16,588 bases of DNA from Planctomycetota bacterium. Lineage in GTDB: Bacteria; Planctomycetota; SZUA-567; H5-PLA8. A program made the position numbers and the translations under genes. Position 1 is the stretch's first letter; each line of letters opens with the position of its first letter. The stretch spans positions 1 to 16,588 of the forward strand of contig JBBRPR010000105.1 of assembly GCA_038227875.1 (NCBI GenBank), read 5' to 3'. The notes under the pieces are model-generated. The model did not search any database. It was not told the DNA's origin and saw only the letters and a list, made by a program, of their open reading frames with translations. Shown piece by piece: positions 3,952 through 16,588 of the stretch.

Positions 3952-5079
3952 CTAAAGTTTTCTGATCGTCGTTTCACCATCCTGCACAAATAGCGGCAGC
4001 AACATGCCCACGGGGGTGGGCTGCCGACCGGAAACGAGGTCACCGACGAGTTGAATCAGCGTCCGTCCCAGTACGCCCGGTTCGGCAACAGCCTTCGTGA
4101 TCGTCGGTACGCCTGGGATCCCTTCATAGAATCCGCCCACGCATGCGACACTGACATCGTGTGGCGTTCGCAATCCCAATTCATTGAGCGCCAGAATGGC
4201 CGCATGCGCAAAAAATCCATCGCGCGCGAAGATTGCCGACGGCGGCCGACGGCGCTGAAATTCGGTTTTCAGTTCAGCCTGAACTTCAGTGAAGGATTGT
4301 CCAACTCCCGTCCGGCCGACTGGATAGTGAAGTCGTTCGAAATCCAGGGCTGAAGGTGCCAACGCCGCCCGCCAACCTTCCCGACGGTCGACCGTGACTT
4401 TATACTCTTTTCGAGAGTTGATCAGCGCCACGGTGCTGTGTCCGAGTTCCTGCAGATACCGGACCACCGAGAAGGCGCCCTGGTAATCGTTGGGCGCCAC
4501 GAAACTCAGTACAGTCGTTTCTTGAAACGGACCAGCGACGACGACCGGCATTCCGCTCGACTGTGCCTGAACGAGTTCCTCAGGATTGGACCAATCGAGC
4601 ACCATCAATGCCTGGCAATCCAACTCGGCAACGCGTGATTCCAGACGTTTTCCAACGGAGTCGTGCGCGGGCAAAAAGTTCATCGACACGCCACGCTTCG
4701 CACATTCAGCCTGAACTTCCAGAAAGGTGAAATAAAATACAGGATCGCGACGCAGCGCGTCCCAGTTGTCGCTGTGGATCACTGCCAGCCGTTTGAGCGG
4801 AGTGGAATTGACTGCGCCTAACGGGGTACGCTCGGATTGTTCCCGAACATACGTCCCTTTGCCGCGCCCGCGTTGTCGAACCAGCAATCCTTCATCCACC
4901 AGTTCCTGCATCGCACGGCGGATGGTCATGGGCGCAGCATCCAGTCGCGCAGACAACTCTCGCTCGGATGGAACCGGTGTTGCGCCACCGTAACGTCCAT
5001 TAGCAATATCTTGAATAAGGGCTTGTTTAACTGTTCGATATTTCAGTTGCCGAATTTTTACAGTATGCTGCAAACCCAT
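3952..5079 (-). CDS. Second AraR-type regulator (GntR wHTH + LacI-type sensor)
   Basis: KYRTVKQALIQDIANG...PSERELSARLD...TIRRAMQELVDEGLLVRQRGRGKGTYV, then LGHSTVALI, DRREGW, GLRTPHDVSV. Start moved from 5112 to the ATG at 5079 because a perfect AGGAGG (5089-5094, minus strand) precedes it. Confidence 0.93.
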   Translation of the reverse strand: MGLQHTVKIRQLKYRTVKQALIQDIANGRYGGATPVPSERELSARLDAAPMTIRRAMQELVDEGLLVRQRGRGKGTYVREQSERTPLGAVNSTPLKRLAVIHSDNWDALRRDPVFYFTFLEVQAECAKRGVSMNFLPAHDSVGKRLESRVAELDCQALMVLDWSNPEELVQAQSSGMPVVVAGPFQETTVLSFVAPNDYQGAFSVVRYLQELGHSTVALINSRKEYKVTVDRREGWRAALAPSALDFERLHYPVGRTGVGQSFTEVQAELKTEFQRRRPPSAIFARDGFFAHAAILALNELGLRTPHDVSVACVGGFYEGIPGVPTITKAVAEPGVLGRTLIQLVGDLVSGRQPTPVGMLLPLFVQDGETTIRKL

Positions 5080-5094
5080 ACTCAGTAACCTCCT

Positions 5095-5245
5095 ACGGAT
5101 ATAGTACACCATTCATGCTAAACATCTAGACATTATAAATATTTTTTATATGTTATATCCACTGACAATCGCGCGCGGTGTACTTGTCGTGGGTTCAATC
5201 ACAAAACGGGACCTCTTCTTGACGATCAATCGGAACTGAGCAGCA
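5095..5245. promoter_or_regulatory. AT-rich divergent promoter region between regulator and amidohydrolase
   Basis: Divergent gene starts; AT-rich core 5118-5160; 8-bp inverted repeat AGTACACC (5103-5110) / GGTGTACT (5177-5184); near-palindrome ATCTAGACA. Confidence 0.55.
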
Positions 5246-6887: not shown

Positions 6888-7070
6888 ATGAACGAACGTG
6901 ACGACGTCTCCCTTCTGAATGCAATCGCCCGGGACCGTGATGAAGCGGCCTTTGCTGAACTCTGCGAGCGCTACCAAAAGCGCGCCTTTTGCTCATCCTT
7001 TCGGATTCTATGCAACGCGGCATTGACCGAAGAGGCTGTTCAGTAGGGCATGCTATCTGTTTGGCTCTCT
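6888..7070 (+). pseudogene. Truncated ECF sigma-70 factor (region 2 only, premature stop)
   Basis: Manual translation MNERDDVSLLNAIARDRDEAAFAELCERYQKRAFCSSFRILCNAALTEEAVQ*GMLSVWLS matches the ECF region-2 pattern (AF..L..RY...A....RIL......EEAVQE.ML.VW). TAG at 7044-7046 sits where Glu (GAG) is expected. No region 4 follows. Confidence 0.8.
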
Positions 7071-7083
7071 TCTCAGCACGGTC

Positions 7084-7975
7084 TTGCGAAACCCTGCACG
7101 CAACACGCAAACGAGTCTGTGGCGAGCGCTGTTGCGACGGCTGACGGGAGTGTGGATTCCGCCGCGCATTCAAGGTTTTGAATTTTGCGATCAACCATGG
7201 CTGGGTGGTGTCTGGCGCGAAGCCTATCTGGACGGTTTGCGATTCCTGTTCAATCTCGGCGGCGTCTATCGCAGCATGCACATTCCGTTTGCACGCTGGG
7301 CGGCGGCTGCCGGCCATGCGCGCGTCCTGGATCTGGCCAGCGGAAACGGCGGACCGACGGAGACCATGTTAGCGAACGCTCAGGCAAACGGCATCGTCAT
7401 GCCAACCATTGTACTCAGCGATTTCTATCCCGACCGCGAGACTTTTGAACGTCTTAAGCAAGCACATTCTGATCAGATTGACTACATCGCCGAAAAGGTC
7501 GATGCGGTTTCCAACCCGTTACATACCGAACTCGTTTCGATCTGTTCTGCCTTCCATCACTTTCCGCCGGACCTGGCAAGAAAACTACTCGCCAATGCCG
7601 GCGAAGGCTCCGACGGCATCTTCATCATGGAGGTTTTCTCGAGGTATTTGCTGACACCGTTCCAATCGCTAATGAACCTGATTCCGTTGATGATTTCGTG
7701 CTTTTCCGCCAACCGTGTCTCGCTACGCAAAGCTCGCCATTACCGCGCTCGTCCCCATCGTTCCCCTGATGATCATCTTTGACGGAATCGCAAGCGCACT
7801 GCGCACGTATCGCCCCGAAGAAATTTTGGACCTGGTTCCCGAGAGGCAGTGTCACGACTGGCAATGGGAGTCGGGAAGTCAGCGCTATCTCGGGATATTT
7901 AGCGCGCCGTATCTGTTTGGATTTCGCCGCAGGACATTAGAAAAGGCTGGCCAACGCAGAGAAATTCACCTTTAG
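7084..7975 (+). pseudogene. Class I SAM-dependent methyltransferase split by a single extra base (pseudogene or sequencing error)
   Basis: FEFCDQPW, VLDLASGNGGP (motif I), LSDFYP, SAFHHF in 7084..7782. The expected C-terminus (LVPIVPLMIIFDGIASALRTY..EE...WQWESG) is in the 7715..7975 frame. Removing one A from AAA at 7729-7731 joins them as ...VSLRKLAITALVP.... The TTG start is uncertain. Confidence 0.8.
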
Positions 7976-8035
7976 GAATGCCGCCATGTTAGACGCGACC
8001 CAAGCCAGAAATTTGAAAAAGAATACTGTCCGGAA
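7974..8035 (+). repeat. Imperfect direct repeat, copy 1 (copy 2 at 10542-10603)
   Basis: Ungapped hand alignment gives 46/62 identities, 27/30 over the first 30 nt (AGGAATGmCGCCATGTTmGAmGCGACCCAA). Weaker similarity extends upstream to about 7940/10504. Confidence 0.85.
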
Positions 8036-8120
8036 GAGCACAGCCCTTTGTTTAGTGACCTCCGGCCGTCTCGTAGCCCGCAGCGCGCCTCCACGGCGAT
8101 TTTCATCAGGAATTAATTAG
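7986..8120 (+). pseudogene. 44-codon ORF, degenerate paralog of the 5' part of the DUF2892 gene
   Basis: MLDATQARNLKKNTVRKS...SGRLVARSA versus MFEATQSNVMQNDNDRNA...WGRLLAGSA (10554). Same AGGAATG-based RBS context; lacks the TM helices and the CP motif. Confidence 0.6.
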
Positions 8121-8216
8121 CACGGATATAAACACTCTGGAAGATACTCATCGCTTCCGCGCAGAACCGGGGTATGAGGAAGACGGCGATTTACCCGCGC
8201 TCGAAAGGGAGGCAGC

Positions 8217-9254
8217 ATGAAAGCGTTCGTCACCGGCTCCACGGGATTTCTGGGGATTCATCTGCTGCAGGAGTTGTCGAATGCGGGATGGGAGGTGATC
8301 GCTTTCCATCGCGCGACTTCCGACCTATCGGACGTGCGCGCTATTCCGCGAATTTCCTACGCGGTTGGCGATGTTTTGGACAAAGCATCGATCCAGCGGG
8401 CGATGCCGGAGCACGTCGATGCGGTCTTTCACGCCGCAGGCTCGGTGGGCTTCTTGAAGCCCGGCGATGAACGCGAACAGTACGCCGTCAATCTCGAAGG
8501 CACCCGCAACGTCGTCGAAGTGGCGATCGAAAAAAAGGTCGGCCGGTTTATCGAAACGTCGACGGTGCTGACCTACGACTTCAGCCATGGCCGCCGGGTG
8601 ACGGAGTCATCACCGCGCAACGCCGGAATCCAATACGCCTACATTCATTCCAAATACCTGGCGGAACTGGAAGTGGAGAAGGGGATACTGAAAGGTCTGG
8701 ACGCGGTGGTGCTGCATCCGTCGGCGATTTTTGGCGCGTACGACAAGGCGACCTGGTCGAAAGTTTTTCGCGAAGTTCAGCGCGGACTGCACATTCCGTT
8801 TGCGCCGCCAATGCGCGCCAATCTCTGTCACATGCGAAAAGTTGCGCAGACGCATCTCACTGCGTTTCACAAAGGCCGGCGGTGCGAGCATTACATTCTG
8901 GGCGGCCCGGAGGCGACCATGATGGAGATCGCCACGGAAATTGGAAAGCTGTTGCAACGCCGCGGTCCGCTGTTTGTCCTGCCCGCGCCGATTTTCAAAT
9001 GTCTGGGTCAGATCGAATACCGGCTCTCCACACTTCTCGGCAAGGAGCCGATGGTCACGCCATCGATGGCGGAGATTCTGTGTGACGTGGTGCTGTGCGA
9101 TTCATCAAAAGCCATTCATGAACTCGATTACGACCCGTCTTCCCTGCAGGTCATGCTCCAGGATTGTTACGCCTGGATGGTTCAGGCGAGGTTGCTTCCG
9201 GCGCCTGAAAATCTCCCGCGCCAGACGGCTGAAGTCGGCCTGGCAACGCGGTGA
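8217..9254 (+). CDS. Extended SDR / NAD-dependent epimerase-dehydratase (dihydroflavonol-reductase-like)
   Basis: VTGSTGFLG Rossmann motif, VFHAAG, VNLEGTRNV, catalytic YIHSK (YxxxK), LHPSAIFG; strong RBS GGGAGG upstream. Confidence 0.93.
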   Translation: MKAFVTGSTGFLGIHLLQELSNAGWEVIAFHRATSDLSDVRAIPRISYAVGDVLDKASIQRAMPEHVDAVFHAAGSVGFLKPGDEREQYAVNLEGTRNVVEVAIEKKVGRFIETSTVLTYDFSHGRRVTESSPRNAGIQYAYIHSKYLAELEVEKGILKGLDAVVLHPSAIFGAYDKATWSKVFREVQRGLHIPFAPPMRANLCHMRKVAQTHLTAFHKGRRCEHYILGGPEATMMEIATEIGKLLQRRGPLFVLPAPIFKCLGQIEYRLSTLLGKEPMVTPSMAEILCDVVLCDSSKAIHELDYDPSSLQVMLQDCYAWMVQARLLPAPENLPRQTAEVGLATR

Positions 9255-9269
9255 TAGCGAGGCAGACGC

Positions 9270-10493
9270 ATGTTCAACTCCCTGATCGTTCGCGCCCGGC
9301 TCTTTGACTTTCACGCGAGGCATCTGTGGCGGTTCCACCGGGTTGTGGCCCGCAGACATCTTTCGAAACGATGTTTGAATTGCGCCATCTCGGAAGTCTG
9401 CTCACCACTGGACGCCGCTGGCGTTTGCGCGGAGTGCCGGACTCATCAGGCCAAAGCGCGAAATTCAATTCGGGAGATCACTGCGCCGACAGCCGAACTT
9501 GCCGCGGCATTGACGGCGCTGTTGCGCAATTACGAAGGCGCCGGCAAAGGCGCCTATGATGCGCTGGTCATGCTCAGCGGTGGCAAAGACAGCGCGCTCT
9601 TGATTCACGAACTCCAGCAGCGCCATCCCAAGCTCAGGCTGCTGGCCATGACCATCGACAACAGCTACATGAGTCCCGTCGCACTGCAGAATTGCGCGCG
9701 GATTGTGGATACGCTCAACGTCGATCATGTTTCGGTGCGGCTGGCAAAGTCGGTGTATGCCAAATCTTTTCGCTTTGCCTGTTGCCACGTTGAAGACAAG
9801 AAAGGCGCGTTCGAAACGGTCGACCGGATCGACGCCGACTTGGGATTCTCACAAGCGAAGATCTACGCCGCAACGCACCGGATTCCCCTGCTGCTCAGCG
9901 GACTTTCGTGGACTCAGGTTGAGCGCCTGTTCGGCCTGCAGTCGTTTGAGGTTCCGCAAGAACAGGCGCTGGCGAAAGTGACGTCGACGCTGGGCGTGGA
10001 TCTGAACGAAATCTACGACGCCAGCGAACTTCGCTACTGGTGGGATCCCCAACGCTTCGACAAGGCAGACTGGCCGCGGTTTGTGCATCCCTTTTATGCG
10101 TGGCGGATGGAGGAGCAGGATATTCGTGATCGGGTCGTGAACCTCGGATTGATCAAACCCGGCAACGACAGTCCGTTGCTCACGAACAACGTCTTGATTC
10201 CGATGATGATCGTCGCTGATTTCCACAACCAGGGATACGCGAGTTTCGAACCGGAATTCGCCTGCCTGGTGCGCGAAGGAAAAGCGGCGCGGCTGTTCTG
10301 GCGCAACGTATTTGAAATGCTGGAGTACTCCGCAAAGACGGGTTGGATGCTGGAAAAAGAAATCGACAAACTCGCCAGCAGCATCGGCCTGACCCGGCAC
10401 GACCTGGGAATTAACACCGGGACTTCGCGCAGGACGAGCGCGGAAAGTCAGACAGCGAGTTCTGTACACATTCGCCCACACACAGTGACTTGA
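9270..10493 (+). CDS. PP-loop (adenine nucleotide alpha hydrolase) ATPase related to N-acetyl-sugar amidotransferases
   Basis: N-terminal CLNC...CAEC; YDALVMLSGGKDS PP-loop; LAMTIDNSYMS..A.QN. RBS GAGG; 15 nt after the SDR stop. Substrate unknown. Confidence 0.8.
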   Translation: MFNSLIVRARLFDFHARHLWRFHRVVARRHLSKRCLNCAISEVCSPLDAAGVCAECRTHQAKARNSIREITAPTAELAAALTALLRNYEGAGKGAYDALVMLSGGKDSALLIHELQQRHPKLRLLAMTIDNSYMSPVALQNCARIVDTLNVDHVSVRLAKSVYAKSFRFACCHVEDKKGAFETVDRIDADLGFSQAKIYAATHRIPLLLSGLSWTQVERLFGLQSFEVPQEQALAKVTSTLGVDLNEIYDASELRYWWDPQRFDKADWPRFVHPFYAWRMEEQDIRDRVVNLGLIKPGNDSPLLTNNVLIPMMIVADFHNQGYASFEPEFACLVREGKAARLFWRNVFEMLEYSAKTGWMLEKEIDKLASSIGLTRHDLGINTGTSRRTSAESQTASSVHIRPHTVT

Positions 10494-10541
10494 AAACGCC
10501 ACGGAAACGATTGCGCAGCGCAGGGGAATTCCACGCTTTTA

Positions 10542-10603
10542 AGGAATGACGCCATGTTCGAAGCGACCCAATCGAACGTAATGCAAAACGATAATGACCG
10601 GAA
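10542..10603 (+). repeat. Imperfect direct repeat, copy 2 (copy 1 at 7974-8035)
   Basis: See copy 1; offset 2568 bp. Confidence 0.85.
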
Positions 10604-10892
10604 TGCCGTGTCGTCGCACGGACTGTGGAGCGTGGATCGATGGGGCAGATTATTGGCGGGGAGTGCCATAGTCCTGACGACCGCGCTTGGCATCCTTCAT
10701 CACCCCGCATGGCTAATCGGAACGCTGCTGGCATCCACCAATCTCATTATCACTTCCGTAATCAACCGATGCCCGTTGCATGACCTGTTGATCCGATTCG
10801 GCGCGAAGGAGCGTGAAGATCTGTATCTTCCTGGTGGCGCGGTGCGGCCAACAGTGCGATCACACTCTTCCAACTTCCCGCCAAAAGGATGA
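10554..10892 (+). CDS. DUF2892 / YgaP-like small membrane protein
   Basis: VDRWGRLLAG, two hydrophobic helices, then NRCPLHDLLIRFG (CP motif typical of DUF2892); RBS AAGGA. Confidence 0.8.
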   Translation: MFEATQSNVMQNDNDRNAVSSHGLWSVDRWGRLLAGSAIVLTTALGILHHPAWLIGTLLASTNLIITSVINRCPLHDLLIRFGAKEREDLYLPGGAVRPTVRSHSSNFPPKG

Positions 10893-10926
10893 AGCGAAAC
10901 CGCAATCGAATGCCAGGAGCGGAGAA

Positions 10927-11868
10927 ATGAAAATGCTGACCGGCGAAAATCTTGAAGTTCCTAGCACAGTGCCTGAGTCAAAGCATGCCAGGCGTTCCAC
11001 AGCCGTCTCCCAGGCGTTGAAAAAAATCGACGCCATGCAGAGCGAGATTGCGCCGCATTCATCTGCGAATGTACGGTCGGGCGATGAAAAGTCGAAATGG
11101 CCGGCGATTGAAGAAGAAATTTCTCTAGGTTGCAGAATTCTAGTTGCTTCGGACCGAAAAACGCGTGAGCGTGCCTATGCGCTGGCACACACGGTTTATC
11201 ACAGCGCGGGATATGTTTCCGCAAACGGACACGGGCTATGCGTGTCACCCTACGACGCTACGTCGCAGACCCTGACGCTTCTGTCTGAAGACGCCGATGG
11301 CAACGACCTGGCCACGATTTCGTTGGTATTCGATTCCTCTGAAGGATTGCCGTGCGATGAAATATACGGAGATGAAGTCTCTGCACTGCGCCATCAAGGC
11401 TGCCGAATGGCGGAAGTGACGCGTCTGGCCATTAGCGAGAAATGCCGCGTTAAAAAAGATCTCCTGCTTCGGCTATTCAACTATTGCTACATTTACGCCC
11501 GAATCGTACGAAGGCAGAGCGATTTCCTGATTGAGGTCAATCCGCGGCACGTGGGCTATTACCAGCGGTTGCTCCGTTTTCAGCAGGCCGGTCCAGTGCG
11601 GCCTTGCTCACGCGTAATGGGCGCGCCCGCAGTTTTATTACGCCTGAGCCTTTCGGAAATTGAATCCACCGTAAAAGAATCAGGTTGCACCAAGGGCCGG
11701 GATCTGAACGGTCTTCGCTTGCATCAATATCCCTATTCCAAACCCGAAGAACATGCGATCGCGAACTATCTAGCCAGAAATCACACACCGATGTGCGCGG
11801 GAGATATGAAATATTTCGGAATTGCTGGCGGTGCCAATAACACTTCCTCATACTGGATGATGCGTTGA
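10927..11868 (+). CDS. FeeM-type long-chain N-acyl amino acid synthase (GNAT fold; OxzA-like)
   Basis: RERAYAL...VY...GY, TISLVFDSSEGLPCDEIY..EV..LR..G.RMAEVTRLA, IEVNPRHVGYYQRLL.F...G..R.C.RV.GAPAVLLRL. Start moved from the GTG at 10813 (overlaps DUF2892) to the ATG at 10927 after AGGAG; 10933 is also possible. Confidence 0.88.
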   Translation: MKMLTGENLEVPSTVPESKHARRSTAVSQALKKIDAMQSEIAPHSSANVRSGDEKSKWPAIEEEISLGCRILVASDRKTRERAYALAHTVYHSAGYVSANGHGLCVSPYDATSQTLTLLSEDADGNDLATISLVFDSSEGLPCDEIYGDEVSALRHQGCRMAEVTRLAISEKCRVKKDLLLRLFNYCYIYARIVRRQSDFLIEVNPRHVGYYQRLLRFQQAGPVRPCSRVMGAPAVLLRLSLSEIESTVKESGCTKGRDLNGLRLHQYPYSKPEEHAIANYLARNHTPMCAGDMKYFGIAGGANNTSSYWMMR

Positions 11869-11892
11869 TCACAACCTTGGGATGGGGTGCAC

Positions 11893-12048
11893 ATGAAAAC
11901 AGCAGAAAGCGATTCCAGTCCGGACATAAGCGAATTCTCTGCGCTTTACGAGAAGCAAGCAGTTTCCGCCTACGGCATGGCGCTGCGACTATCCGAAAAT
12001 CGCGCACAGGGTTGGGTGACGATTGATTTTTCGAAGCCTTGTTCCTGA
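11893..12048 (+). pseudogene. Second truncated ECF sigma-factor stub (51 codons)
   Basis: Manual translation MKTAESDSSPDISEFSALYEKQAVSAYGMALRLSENRAQGWVTIDFSKPCS*. EFSALYEK.A..AYGMALRL..NRAQ fits the start of ECF region 2; similarity breaks at about 12009, just before the expected AED..QE motif. Confidence 0.6.
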
Positions 12049-12084
12049 GTTTTCACCGCGTTGCTCAAGCGAAAGGTCATGACC

Positions 12085-13044
12085 ATGATGATTGTGCGGG
12101 AGAACACCACCGCTGAGTCCGACGTCGACCGCGGGTTCAACTACCGCCGCGCGTTTGCGCGTAATCTTGGACTCGTCAGCGTTTCAGAGCAGTCGCGCCT
12201 GCAACACACCCGCGTTGCGCTGGCCGGATTGGGTGGCGTCGGCGGCGGGCACCTGCAGGCGCTGGGGCGGTTGGGCGTCGGCGCGTTCCGCCTCGCCGAT
12301 CCCGATACGTTCGATGTCGTCAACATGAACCGGCAACTCGGCGCGACGATGGCCACCGTGGGCCGCCCCAAGGTCGAGGTCCTCGCCGAAGCCGCGCGCG
12401 CGATCAATCCCGAGGCCGAAGTCGTCGCCTTTCCCGACGGCATCACCCGCGAAAATATCGGCGCGTTTCTCGACGGGGTCGATGTCGCCGTCGACGGTCT
12501 GGAATTTTTCGCAATCGAAATCCGCCGCATGTATTTCCACGAATGCCGCCAGCGCGGCATTCCCATCGTCACCGCCGGACCCATCGGCTACGGCGCGGCA
12601 GTGCTGGTCTTCACGCCCGATGGCATGTCGTTCGACGACTACTTCCGCATCGACGACACGATGACTCGCGCCGAACAACTGATGGCCTTCGGCCTGGGCC
12701 TGGCGCCGGGACTGATCAGCGACGTGGACCCCTCGCGCGTCGACGTTGCCGGAGAAAAAGGACCGGCGCTGGCGTCCGCGTGTTTTCTCTGCGCCGCAGC
12801 CGCCGCGACAGAAGTGCTCAAACTTGTCTGCGGCCGCGGGGCGCTCTCGTCCGCGCCGTTCGGCACATACTACGATCCCTATCGCGGCAAAATATGCGCG
12901 CTGCGGCCGCGTCCGTCGTTGACGCACAGCCTGCGCGGACGCGTGCTGCGCTGGCTGGCGTTCCGCCGCTTCCCCGCGTTTCGCGTCATGCATGAACGCG
13001 AAGTGGCTGCGCGCACCGCGAGCGAAAGGTACGCTCATGCTTGA
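12085..13044 (+). CDS. ThiF/MoeB-family adenylyltransferase (like the N-terminal domain of OxzB)
   Basis: AFARNLGL, GLGGVGG, ADPDTFDVVNMNRQ, GRPKVEV, VDGLEFF. Start placed at the ATG at 12085, 8 nt after GAAAGG; 12079 and 12088 are alternatives. Confidence 0.92.
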   Translation: MMIVRENTTAESDVDRGFNYRRAFARNLGLVSVSEQSRLQHTRVALAGLGGVGGGHLQALGRLGVGAFRLADPDTFDVVNMNRQLGATMATVGRPKVEVLAEAARAINPEAEVVAFPDGITRENIGAFLDGVDVAVDGLEFFAIEIRRMYFHECRQRGIPIVTAGPIGYGAAVLVFTPDGMSFDDYFRIDDTMTRAEQLMAFGLGLAPGLISDVDPSRVDVAGEKGPALASACFLCAAAAATEVLKLVCGRGALSSAPFGTYYDPYRGKICALRPRPSLTHSLRGRVLRWLAFRRFPAFRVMHEREVAARTASERYAHA

Positions 13045-14131
13045 TTGCCCACCGCGCGTCGTGGAACGCGAACTGGTCGCCGCGGATCAGGCCGTGCTGG
13101 AATTGCTGCGTGCCTGCGTCGCAGCGGCGGTGCGCGCACCCTCGGGCGACAATTTGCAGCCGTGGCGCTTTGATGTGGACGCGCTGAACGGCGAGATCGC
13201 CGTCTGCCTCGACGCCTCGCGCGATCGTTCGCCGATGAACGCCGGCCAGAAGATGTCCCGCATCGCCTGCGGCGCCGCCGTACAGAATATTCTGATCGCA
13301 GCAGATGCCGCTGGAGGCAGCGCGACGCTGTTGGACGTTCACGCTAACGATGTCGTCGCGCGAATTCTTGTGCGGCCCGGAAATGGCTCCGTGCGGATGC
13401 CGCGCGCCATCGTCGAACGCGCGACGCACCGCGGTATGTATTCGGGAGAACCGCCGTCGGAAAGCGTTCATGCCGCGTTGGTCGACGCTACGCCGCGCCT
13501 GGATGGCGTGGACACGAATTGGATCTGCGAACCGGAGCGAAAAACCGCGCTGTCAAAATCGATCGGCGCGGCCGACGCGCTGATGTTCGCCAACGCGGCG
13601 ATGCGCACCGCATTTTTCGCGAGCGTTCGATTCGACCGGCCTGCGCGCGAAAGTGTCGACCACGGATTGTCGCTGGCATCGCTGGAACTTTCCGCACCGG
13701 AACGCCTCTCGTTGCCGCTGATGAAGCAGACACCCACGGCGCTCCTGCGGCTCGGCGGCGTTTTTCGCGGCATGAGCGCACATTCGCAGAAACTGGTCGT
13801 CAGCGCATCGGGCCTGTGCGTGATCACGGCGAAAAACGCGTCGGATCGCAGTTGCGTCACCGTCGGCCGCGCTCTGCAGCAGGCATGGCTGGAACTCACG
13901 CGTCGCGGATTCGTCGCGCAGCCGATGATGTCGCTGCTGGTGCTCGCCAACGCGCTTGAAAATGGCGCATCTCACATGCTGGACCGCGCGCAAACCGAAC
14001 AACTGCTCCAGGCATTTCGAGCGGAATTGAATCTCGACGCCCAACCGATGTTTCTGCTGCGCTTCGGCTACGCCGGACCGCACAGCGGCCGCACCGGACG
14101 CCGGCCCACACCGGAGATCTCCGCGCCATGA
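13037..14131 (+). CDS. Nitroreductase-superfamily FMN-dependent oxidoreductase (Acg-like double domain; like the C-terminal domain of OxzB)
   Basis: AVRAPSGDNLQPWRF, IACGAAVQN, ERATHRGMY, GRALQQAWLELT..G...QPM, FLLRFGYA...RT.RRP. ATG at 13037 has its own GAAAGG RBS and overlaps the ThiF end by 8 nt. Confidence 0.88.
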   Translation: MLDCPPRVVERELVAADQAVLELLRACVAAAVRAPSGDNLQPWRFDVDALNGEIAVCLDASRDRSPMNAGQKMSRIACGAAVQNILIAADAAGGSATLLDVHANDVVARILVRPGNGSVRMPRAIVERATHRGMYSGEPPSESVHAALVDATPRLDGVDTNWICEPERKTALSKSIGAADALMFANAAMRTAFFASVRFDRPARESVDHGLSLASLELSAPERLSLPLMKQTPTALLRLGGVFRGMSAHSQKLVVSASGLCVITAKNASDRSCVTVGRALQQAWLELTRRGFVAQPMMSLLVLANALENGASHMLDRAQTEQLLQAFRAELNLDAQPMFLLRFGYAGPHSGRTGRRPTPEISAP

Positions 14132-14396
14132 TGTCCATCGGCTGGCGAAATTTGAAGCGGGATCTGTGGCGGGCGGACTTGCGGTGCTTGCGTCGTCTTC
14201 GCGGTGGTGCTCGTGACGGTCGAAGTCGGGATGTTGATAGGGCTGGTGCGGAATGATCGATCAGTCGAAGGCGTATCTGTGGGTTTCGACTGTTGACGTA
14301 AAGACCTTCGACTTCGCGACGCCGTTCGATCAGCGGAAACGTTATCGCATCGAAGCGGTGCTGGGCGTCGAGCGCGTCAAAGAATTCAACGTTTAA
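14128..14396 (+). pseudogene. Frameshifted, truncated ABC transporter permease (DevC/FtsX/MacB-type) N-terminus
   Basis: ATGA overlap with the nitroreductase stop and a GGAG RBS. Three consecutive segments joined by two frameshifts: MMSIGWRNLKRDLWR / VVFAVVLVTVEVGMLIGLVRN / IDQSKAYLWVSTVDVKTFDFATPFDQRKRYRIEAVLGVERVKEFNV*. Confidence 0.8.
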
Positions 14397-14409
14397 CGTT
14401 ACGTAGACG

Positions 14410-14442
14410 TCGCTCCCGCGCGGGGAGCGAGCCGCGTTTTTT
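14410..14442 (+). terminator. GC-rich hairpin region followed by T6, possible intrinsic terminator
   Basis: TCGCTCCC (14410-14417) pairs with GGGAGCGA (14423-14430). An alternative stem CGCGG/CCGCG (14419-14436) directly precedes TTTTTT (14437-14442). Confidence 0.35.
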
Positions 14443-14552
14443 CGAAGACATATTACCATTGCCGTGGCGACACCGAACGGTTCTGCGCAGGCCGGACTGC
14501 CGATTACCATCGTCGCCGGCGATCACCAGCGCGCTCCCGGCCAACGCTCGAT

Positions 14553-14903
14553 ATGGCCTCGCTTACAGACGCTCTGGCCAAGAAGTTGCAGTCGAAGCCT
14601 GTCTCAGCGATATCACTTGATCTTAAAATTCTGCAACGAGCAGTAAATACGCGATCTGTCGCCGAGATCAAGTCCGACGCGGAGATTATCGCGAAAGGCG
14701 TGGATTGGAATTTGAAGCTTTTGAAGGACGCCGCTCCCGGCAAACGTGTCGAAGCAGCCATAAGACTGAGTGGCTTGCGCGATCCACGCGTCGCAGACGC
14801 GATGCTTGCCATGTTGACGGATCCTGATGGAGGGGTGCGCTCTAGTGCGGTTTTCGTTCTCGATGAGAAGCGCGATCCACGGGCTGTGGATAAGCTTAGT
14901 TAG
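14553..14903 (+). pseudogene. HEAT-repeat (PBS-lyase-like) protein fragment
   Basis: LLKD....KRVEAAIRLSGLRDPRVADAMLAMLTDPDGGVRSSAVFVLDEKRDPRAVDKL ends mid-repeat; no clear RBS. Confidence 0.7.
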
Positions 14904-15033
14904 TTCCTGTTTCCCTGATCGCAGCACAATAAATTTTCATACGAAAAAGTGAATTTTAAAGGCTGTAAAAATTAAGTTTATACGACAATAATCATGGGGG
15001 CAAAAAGCAAAAATGGCGGGGTTTAAGCATAGA

Positions 15034-15174
15034 ATGCGCAAAAAAGCGGTGCGGCAGTTGCCCCTTGATTTCGCGGGCACGCAGAAACTCACGCAGAATT
15101 GGTATGTGCGCTATCGCAACATTCACGAGATTCTGGAGCAGAATCCAGAAGCGCTGGACTTGGTCCACGACGAT
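15034..15174 (+). mobile_element. N-terminal stub of a probable ISNCY-type transposase
   Basis: MRKKAVRQLPLDF...RYRNIHEILEQNPEALDLVHDD resembles, from recall, ISNCY transposase N-termini (MRK....Q.PL....I..ILD.NP.ILDLVH.DL). Preceded by an AT-rich leader (14901-15030); no DDE domain follows. Confidence 0.55.
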
Positions 15175-15285
15175 CGGACTCGAGGGCAAAAGAAACTGAA
15201 ACGCAGACCCAAGTCGGATCCAGTAGCATGGGAGCAAGTTACCACGAACCGCCACGAAACAAACGCCTGGCACCTTGATACGAAG

Positions 15286-15730
15286 CTAGAGGGAGTCGAT
15301 TTCGTGGATCTCCCGAGGGTGAATTACTTCCCAGACCAGCCCGAACGCTGATAAGGTCAAAATGATTAAATAGGAAATATCGAGTTCCCACCAGCGCATT
15401 CCATGGGCTGCAGAACGTTGTTGGGCATGATGATTGTTGTGCCAACCTTCACCAAACGTCAGCAATGCCACCACGGGATTATTGCGGGAATTGTCATCTG
15501 TATGGTAATTTCGATAACCCCAACGATGTGCCACTGAATTCACTAACCAAGTGCCATTGAATCCGAAAACAAGTCGGACGCACATCCCCCACACTATCCA
15601 AGGCCATCCGCCGGCGGCGTAAAGTACGACCGCCACCAAAAGAGAAATGGCTAGACCCCATCGGTCTATCAAAATCAATACCGAATCGTTGGAGAGGTCG
15701 TTAGTGCACTTCTTTGCCCGGTCGTCCTTT
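15286..15730 (-). pseudogene. 3' half of a delta-9-type membrane fatty acid desaturase
   Basis: TWLVNSVAHRWGYRNY..DDNSRNN..VALLTFGEGWHNNHHA..RSAAHG..WWELD with the third His box HNNHH (15427-15441). The first two His boxes are absent; the 5' boundary is approximate. Confidence 0.88.
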
Positions 15731-15984
15731 TCGGCCTTCCGAATAAAGGCGGCGACATTTCGCAGAAGATTTCGAGCAAAACTAAGCCGAAATCTGACGG
15801 GCAATAGGTTTTCCGGGGCGAGCTACGGGACGCCGTCCAGACCCTACCGGGAAAGGGCCCGAAAAAATAAAAAGGGTAATAAAAGACTTATTAGTTTACC
15901 CTGTAAGTTTAACCCGTATAATGGTTTGCAATATTCATGAAAGTTGCCTATGGAAATATTCAAAGTTTGTTCCGGACGGCCAAT

Positions 15985-16542
15985 AAGACGGAGAACCGTT
16001 TCGCTGGTCCGCGACTCGGTATATCTGAATACAATCTCGCTGCAGTTCGCTCCGCCGATCAAGACCCACACGCGAACGCGATCGCATTGTCCCGGTGCTT
16101 GCACGCGCACGTCCGTATCATCGGCGTGCAGTTTGAATCCGTTCAGGATTTCCATTTCCTGCGCGCGCATGATCGGCGCCAGTAATTTGCCCAGCCAGAT
16201 CATCCAAGAGCAGATCGTCGAGCGTGCCAGCGGGCAACCCAGTTCCGCAAACAATCGTTCGATCCGGTATAGCGTTCGATGGTAATGCAGCCGATCGATT
16301 GCAATCTGCGTCAGGATCTCCGGAGAGGCCGCGCACTTCGGAAACACCTTGATCATGCCGCCCACCGTCACCAGCCGCGTTTCGCCGTCGCAGGTCGAAT
16401 ACAAAACCGCCGGCCGCTTATGGACGATGACGTGCGGGCGCGGCAAGACCAATTCCTCGCAGGTGTCGTGATCGATGACCTTGAATCCTTTGGCGGGATC
16501 GAAATTGGGAAGATCGCGGGCGGGATCGAGGAAGCGTCCCAC
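15985..16542 (-). mobile_element. tnpC: Internal fragment of an IS66-family transposase (TnpC)
   Basis: HYHRTLYRIERLF...G..LARSTICSW......LAPI......IL....LHADDTDVRV..PG....RVWV...VFRYTESR. Similarity stops at about 15985, before the later catalytic residues; the N-terminal region and tnpA/tnpB are not in the window. Confidence 0.88.
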
Positions 16543-16588
16543 TGATTGTTGAAAATTGAAGAGCGTCCTGTGCCGATGAAGAAAGGTA

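Follow-up and report, generated by a model that had tools for sequence, protein, structure and literature searches.

Separate FeeM, ThiF and flavin oxidase genes in a decaying planctomycete cassette: a probable TyzABC/stieleriacine-type lipid pathway

Contig JBBRPR010000105.1 of the Planctomycetota bacterium assembly GCA_038227875.1 carries, within the 16,588 nucleotides analysed (the window), consecutive genes for a FeeM-type N-acyl amino acid synthase, a ThiF-like adenylating enzyme and an Acg-like flavin oxidase (FDO) of the nitroreductase family (Table 1). Open reading frame (ORF) and profile scans found them where an earlier note on this DNA had placed a FeeM, a ThiF and a nitroreductase gene, the last two overlapping. 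The FeeM and ThiF genes lie on the same strand, 210 bases apart, and in-frame ATGs at the ThiF start occur at 12079, 12085 and 12088. The 3' end of the ThiF gene and the 5' end of the FDO gene share eight bases (ThiF stop codon 13042-13044, FDO ATG 13037). All three belong to a decaying gene cassette.

Table 1. Features of the window, with coordinates on the forward strand
Feature	Position	Strand	Remarks
Broken large extracytoplasmic function (ECF) sigma gene, cassette head, first ~62 codons	6888..7076	+	In-frame TAG 7044-7046
Frameshifted gene, methyltransferase-like by eye only	7084..7975	+	No Pfam or NCBIfam match
Extended short-chain dehydrogenase/reductase (SDR) / NAD-dependent epimerase, possible tailoring enzyme	8217..9254	+	Intact; Pfam Epimerase E = 7e-25; HpnA 183 bits, below cut-off
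WbuX-like N-type ATP pyrophosphatase, possible tailoring enzyme	9270..10493	+	Intact; TIGR03573 E = 1e-16, below cut-off
Small YgaP-like membrane protein	10554..10892	+	Pfam YgaP-like_TM 29.6 bits
FeeM-type N-acyl amino acid synthase	10927..11868	+	313 aa, intact; Pfam PF21926
Small ECF sigma stump, likely join of two gene blocks	11893..12048	+	Homology stops near codon 38, ~12007
GCGAAAGGT, likely ribosome-binding site of ThiF gene	12069..12077	+	
ThiF-like adenylating enzyme, predicted cyclase, PRK08223 type	12079..13044	+	321 aa, intact
GCGAAAGGT within ThiF 3' end, likely ribosome-binding site of FDO gene	13022..13030	+	Core 7 bases before ATG 13037
Acg-like flavin oxidase (FDO), nitroreductase family	13037..14131	+	364 aa
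Broken ABC exporter permease, first ~90 codons, then cut off	14128..14393	+	Three frameshifting deletions

The synthase matches the Pfam FeeM profile with 153.9 bits (cut-off 27, E = 4e-45), and its sole PDB match is FeeM (2G0B, E = 1e-10). All 13 columns that 34 relatives conserve are kept, Glu150 among them. The window has a gene for a FeeM-fold amino acid N-acyltransferase beside a ThiF gene, one of the features looked for in the pathway type discussed below.

The ThiF protein scored 358 bits with the NCBIfam model PRK08223 (cut-off 266) and 149.5 bits with Pfam ThiF, against 89 bits at most with the NCBIfam models for MoeB, ThiF and TcdA (75.9 bits for TcdA, whose cut-off is 304). In a 33-row tree it fell in a clade of 23 rows (support 99/98), together with five proteobacterial ThiF-FDO fusions, a triple fusion from D. 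vulgaris and standalone forms. Outside this clade were E. coli MoeB, ThiF and TcdA and two MoeB-like genes of the same genome, which clustered with E. coli MoeB/ThiF (100/98). The 33-row tree drops 32 of 65 rows, including the long branches from contigs C9 and C49 and from Rhizobium; the 65-row tree was run in quick mode only. Identity to the fused ThiF domains of proteobacterial type was 46 to 52% in all 11 tested (E = 1e-70 or better), against E = 2e-17 or weaker for MoeB, ThiF and TcdA (database size set to 4e7). The protein retains 57 of 59 conserved columns and the ATP-site residues G50, G53, D74, R85 and K98. Opposite MoeB C172, C175, C187, C244 and C247 the alignment shows L, F, G and gaps; both zinc-binding CxxC motifs and the Cys187 position are absent. 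The window ThiF stands in a subclade of its own (97/96), apart from the sampled Pirellulaceae loci, and six close homologues carry planctomycete names. Among plasmids, matches came only from Nitratidesulfovibrio and Bdellovibrio, at E = 1e-30.

These results bear on whether the gene might encode a housekeeping MoeB, ThiF or TcdA, or an enzyme for peptides made by the ribosome and modified after translation (RiPPs), standing here by chance. The best PDB sequence matches are indeed TcdA, ThiF and MoeB, and relatives are labelled 'molybdopterin/thiamine biosynthesis adenylyltransferase' in their sources, but the PDB matches span the N-terminal ATP site only. The zinc and catalytic cysteines of MoeB are gone, and separate MoeB-like genes are present in the genome. 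No YcaO was found among the 16 window ORFs scanned, short precursor peptides not being searched for, and MccB matched only at E = 1e-5, over about 105 residues. Grouping with MoeB, TcdA or RiPP enzymes, which the earlier note had named as the outcome that would overturn its proposal, was thus refuted by profile scores, tree and residue alignment, and the probability left to such an enzyme is negligible. The PDB sequence matches contained no solved structure from the ThiF or the FDO clade.

The third protein matches Pfam Nitroreductase (E = 2e-10, 41.5 bits), and the NCBIfam Acg-family model gave 136 bits, below its cut-off of 199. Its sole PDB sequence match is Acg (2YMV), which is also the best fold match (E = 3e-16, TM-score 0.70) of its predicted model (predicted local distance difference test score 95.4). 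Acg is the closest structure reported for TyzC-type FDOs (PMC10404671) and for the FDO of TrzS (PMC12856293). A best match to Acg marks the FDO subgroup of TyzC, OxzB and TrzS. By length and best match the gene product fits this subgroup of Acg-like monomers of about 340 to 370 aa, and its gene adjoins that of ThiF, the NCBIfam family models matching it below their cut-offs. Among its relatives, a ThiF-FDO fusion (P0364) has an FDO domain 48% identical to that of the window. Other architectures seen were FeeM + FDO + glycosyltransferase (P0369, 1092 aa), ThiF + FDO + FDO (P0362) and tandem FDOs (P0363 and P0484).

The split between ThiF and FDO is genuine. A contig from a second assembly, of run X1 (record 5), is identical to window positions 11196-14930, letter for letter and ungapped; it probably derives from the source sample and is available as contigs only, so it is a second assembly rather than an independent sample. 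At 12990-13045, where the earlier note had proposed inspecting raw reads for an indel, this contig shows none, contigs being compared. Split ThiF/FDO paralogues are also present on contigs C13 and C89 of the same genome. An assembly error within one fused OxzB-like gene might be suspected from the overlap of the two ORFs and the existence of fused relatives (P0364, P0499 and L006). Against it stand the identity of the second assembly over the junction, the likely ribosome-binding site belonging to the FDO start, the split state of the C13 and C89 paralogues and the single-domain length of most of the 149 best FDO relatives (119 of 300 to 420 aa, 21 below 300, eight above 500 and one between), which together make such an error exceedingly improbable. 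The window pair thus lacks the one-polypeptide state of OxzB and TrzS in the strict sense. A predicted ThiF-FDO complex scored 0.13, below the mark of 0.32, control pairs not being folded.

The earlier note had also seen the same ribosome-binding-site-containing sequence, GCGAAAGGT, ahead of the ThiF and nitroreductase genes. Both copies are there (12069 and 13022); they are the only two in the window, and there is none ahead of FeeM. Two copies were reached in two of 200 shuffles, the motif having been chosen after the fact. Genome-wide, GCGAAAGGT occurs 82 times. It was not seen in the 30 bases ahead of six starts inspected on other contigs (five ThiF/FDO paralogues and one permease), two of which have the core GAAAGG alone. 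A role as a special element was rejected on these grounds, and GCGAAAGGT is presumably an ordinary ribosome-binding site. The 3' end of 16S rRNA was not recognised among the genome-wide matches, and a scan of 7900-14600 for sigma-70 promoters and terminators stayed at chance level.

The split form is common among relatives. Of 201 genomes from the phylum, nine had PRK08223 matches, 24 in all: 22 in open frames no longer than 416 aa, one fused (719 aa) and one in a frame of 510 aa. In the family of locus L005, labelled Pirellulaceae, seven of 121 genomes have a match; all seven are standalone, and the DNA fetched around each includes an oxidase gene. The 19 named genome loci comprise one fused, nine with a separate oxidase within the locus and nine without an FDO there. 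FeeM, ThiF, FDO and permease genes stand in this order on C13 and C89 too, as well as in a further genome, G004.

Comparable systems have been described. OxzA makes N-acyl-tyrosine, which the fused OxzB, with ATP, turns into an oxazolone (10.1101/2020.06.11.147165). In M. tuberculosis, the separate TyzA, TyzB and TyzC do the same chemistry, TyzB and TyzC cyclising and desaturating N-acyl-tyrosine, and FDOs are described there as mostly single-domain, with about 340 residues (PMC10404671). Massilia, Thalassotalea and two species of Stieleria likewise have the synthase, ThiF and nitroreductase encoded separately, the role of ThiF there being called enigmatic (PMC12479983). In a ThiF sequence network, TyzB and OxzB form one subcluster and TrzS another, and for most members the FDO and acyltransferase genes are neighbours or fusion partners (PMC12856293). 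What the earlier note had put forward as a two-polypeptide version of the OxzAB pathway therefore stands as regards the acyl-oxazolone type of the enzymes, which profiles, ThiF tree and missing cysteines support, and the reality of the split; the implied novelty falls, since M. tuberculosis TyzABC had already been characterised in this form and the genes are separate in the other three genera too.

The closest likeness is to TyzABC, with a FeeM-fold acyltransferase of 322 aa, a ThiF cyclase of 318 aa and a single-domain, Acg-like FDO of 372 aa, three separate proteins of which ThiF and FDO share one operon. In contrast to the window, where all three genes lie on one strand, tyzA is on the opposite strand; the window set also differs, compared by description, in that its cassette is headed by a sigma gene and includes the remnant of an ABC exporter. 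The clusters for stieleriacines (Stieleria), kyonggic acids (Massilia) and thalassotalic acids (Thalassotalea) likewise have separate NasY, ThiF and nitroreductase genes, which in Massilia and Thalassotalea overlap or are only a short distance apart, but their products are N-acyl dehydro-tyrosines. Stieleria is in addition a planctomycete with several synthases per genome, although three or four rather than the 19 found here. OxzAB of Pseudoalteromonas rubra (10.1101/2020.06.11.147165) and TrzAS (PMC12856293) share the three domains, acyltransferase first, whereas their ThiF and FDO form one polypeptide.

The TrzS-family ThiF domain on a Rhodococcus plasmid (L071) is 33% identical to the window ThiF over 143 aa and lies outside its clade. 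That plasmid, from Rhodococcus qingshengii (NZ_CP088909.1, L071:2626-4818), has a gene of the Rv1355c (TrzS) family. The 989-aa NCBIfam model PRK14852 has three parts, which the three window proteins match in the same order; like PRK08223 it is labelled 'hypothetical protein'. PRK14852 differs in describing one triple fusion, DVU_RS16045 of D. vulgaris (NC_005863.1, L060:6062-9031), where FeeM, ThiF and FDO are fused in this order on a plasmid, within an XrtA/PEP-CTERM locus. D. vulgaris is an anaerobe, while characterised oxidases use O2. To our knowledge, the substrates in all characterised cases are aromatic amino acids. The names OxzB, TyzB and TyzC did not appear among the best 120 homologue matches listed, and no literature was found on such a synthase in connection with planctomycetes and ECF sigma factors.

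We consider it probable, at roughly 70%, that the three genes encode a lipid pathway of the TyzABC/stieleriacine type. By analogy with TyzABC, OxzAB and TrzAS, FeeM would N-acylate an amino acid with a fatty acyl group. ThiF, a separate protein, would use ATP to adenylate and so activate the carboxyl group and would form the oxazolone ring; desaturation of the amino-acid part would fall to the flavin oxidase, likewise separate. The product may be an acyl-oxazolone or a ring-opened N-acyl dehydro-amino acid, and it is uncertain that the pathway ends at the oxazolone. Natural fusions (DVU_RS16045, P0364 and P0369) tie the FeeM, ThiF and FDO domains together.

Several observations weigh against this reading. 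Membership of the pathway type is suggested through proxies, namely ThiF-FDO fusions, rather than through characterised OxzB, TyzB or TyzC. The MoeB Asp130 column holds Glu142 in the window ThiF (codon 12502-12504); Glu occurs at this column in 84 of 119 standalone relatives, against Asp in 118 of 120 fused ones. The conserved Asp of the adenylation motif is D217 in TrzS (PMC12856293), and this appears to equal MoeB Asp130. The FDO retains 39 of 41 conserved columns, the differences being E83Q and N131H, which are within the spread of 113 relatives, and it is only 23 to 26% identical to proteobacterial fused FDO domains. Nine of the 19 named loci show no FDO within the DNA fetched, and the sigma and exporter genes of the window cassette are broken. 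The window FeeM clusters (98/96) with six paralogues, on contigs C83, C49, C2, C97, C64 and C102, none of which is followed by a ThiF gene. Trees forcing it beside the FeeMs of ThiF-FDO cassettes were rejected (approximately unbiased test, P = 1e-9, 8e-5 and 0.02), the constrained groups having been named after the tree was seen. Finally, no oxazolone was observed in the compound families from Stieleria, Massilia and Thalassotalea, and the main synthase of S. neptunia lies outside the cluster (PMC12479983).

As a separate observation, a DGxEFF motif, with Glu for Asp, is typical of most standalone ThiF relatives and of several ThiFs without an FDO.

Some of these points could also mean that ThiF only activates the N-acyl amino acid, as an adenylate or short-lived azlactone, for donation to another acceptor, so that the pathway would end in an amide or ester conjugate instead of an oxazolone; the N-type ATP pyrophosphatase and the SDR encoded upstream might contribute. 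ThiFs of the clade are often without a nearby FDO (in nine of 14 same-phylum ThiF regions, as in the nine loci above), this subclade has Glu in place of Asp at the metal site, PEP-CTERM genes surround the D. vulgaris triple fusion, and no oxazolone was seen in the three published compound families (PMC12479983). In the window, however, the ThiF gene overlaps that of an FDO, and ThiF-FDO adjacency has been linked to oxazolone synthesis; moreover, oxazolones are labile and easily missed (PMC12856293), and TyzB and TyzC do yield an oxazolone (PMC10404671). A donor role is accordingly judged unlikely beside the TyzABC/stieleriacine-type pathway.

Whether the window FeeM is the dedicated partner of this ThiF and FDO is uncertain. 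The ThiF-FDO-permease block was probably joined on near 12010, later than FeeM, as the FeeM tree, the identities to C13, a step in GC content at third codon positions (GC3), the sigma stump and the departure of another contig together suggest. The copy nearest to the window ThiF is that on C13 (75% identity), whose FeeM is only 29% identical to that of the window. GC3 steps from 0.55 in FeeM, within the lowest 3% of 2244 long ORFs, to 0.79 in ThiF and 0.74 in FDO. Over 36 aa the stump shares 42% identity with the 180-aa Sigma70_r2/r4 protein behind FeeM on C88 (pairwise E = 1e-5), and it also resembles part of C67 (55%, E = 6e-5); Pfam gave no match on the stump itself. A contig of run X3, of low depth and from another study, tracks window positions 11742-12010 at about 91% identity and then departs. 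Nothing useful in the genome or loci matched the 70 bases between the stump and the ThiF gene. With a later join, ThiF and FDO may equally act on what any one of the 19 synthases in the genome makes.

For four of the six FeeM paralogues closest to that of the window the next gene is FAD oxidase-like, although only the one on C49 was scanned (FAD_binding_4). A gene neighbouring FeeM in the C27 cassette reads as a methyltransferase. Besides its 19 FeeM genes, the genome holds five ThiF genes above the PRK08223 cut-off, one of them broken, and five such oxidases. FeeM matches, which are not copy numbers, amounted to 24 in G004, 47 in G021 and 13 in G028, all among 40 relatives, and 28 of 41 genomes had none. 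Many of the matches in G021 and G028 lie in long open frames of 500 to 1200 aa.

Several other parts of the window cassette have counterparts elsewhere in the genome. Positions 6888-7076 share 39 to 65% identity with the N-termini of large sigma paralogues, which carry Sigma70_r2/r4. Atlas look-alikes of the ATP pyrophosphatase are QueC, NAD synthase and amidotransferase (score 0.96 to 0.97), and a paralogue of its gene lies on C49 between FeeM and a divergent ThiF. The YgaP-like protein has four paralogues, each within a FeeM cassette. The permease stub shares 75 to 80% DNA identity with permease genes on C13, C49 and C89, with gaps of 1, 1 and 11 bases; the C13 paralogue is a MacB_PCD/FtsX protein. 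The C13 cassette has a sigma gene, FeeM-ThiF-FDO-permease and ATPase and membrane-fusion genes, and on C89 FeeM-ThiF-FDO-permease likewise stands behind a sigma gene. An unnamed ORF of about 90 to 100 aa lies between ThiF and FDO on C13 (~123570-123840) and at L046 (~7850-8150), and a like ORF lies ahead of the FDO on C49 (190-495); the window is without such a gene.

The decay raises the question of whether the locus is a silent relic, its regulators and exporter dead and its enzymes no longer expressed. The broken large sigma gene, the frameshifted methyltransferase-like gene, the sigma stump, the broken permease and an IS66 fragment would all fit, as would the low GC3 of FeeM and the sister copies on C13 and C89. 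Against this, six cassette genes, the three enzyme genes included, have neither stops nor frameshifts, and nearly all conserved columns are kept (13/13 in FeeM, 57/59 in ThiF and 39/41 in FDO). The permease stub has three frameshifts in 265 bases and ThiF plus FDO none, where about 23 would be expected at the stub's rate in a rough sum, which points to selection. The enzyme genes thus appear to have been kept by selection after exporter loss, and a silent relic is considered very unlikely.

Downstream debris at 14553-16588 includes a HEAT-repeat fragment, a fatty acid desaturase fragment (15286-15804, minus strand) and the IS66 transposase fragment (15844-16542, minus strand), and contig depth rises at 14901-15500. 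Towards the other end of the window, two regulators with a GntR helix-turn-helix and a LacI-type sensor (202-1320 and 3952-5112, minus strand) flank an 830-aa zinc-ribbon protein.

A split oxazolone synthetase as such adds little, the form being characterised and common. More tentatively, and as a possibility that we regard as doubtful when taken whole, the locus may be a snapshot of cassette shuffling. The sigma stump would mark where a synthase of flavin-oxidase-type cassettes was joined to a ThiF-FDO block from an uncharacterised subclade with the Glu motif, the genes for an N-type ATP pyrophosphatase and an SDR standing upstream. The lineage would operate a combinatorial lipid library, with as many as 19 synthases and several ThiF/FDO modules, the new combination making an acyl-oxazolone or conjugate with an undescribed amino acid or tailoring. 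The probable join itself offers a concrete example of how synthase cassettes in this genome may swap tailoring enzymes. Because the role of ThiF in planctomycete N-acyl tyrosine pathways is unsettled (PMC12479983) and TyzB and TyzC were largely insoluble (PMC10404671), an intact standalone ThiF/FDO pair of a distinct subclade may serve as a test case.

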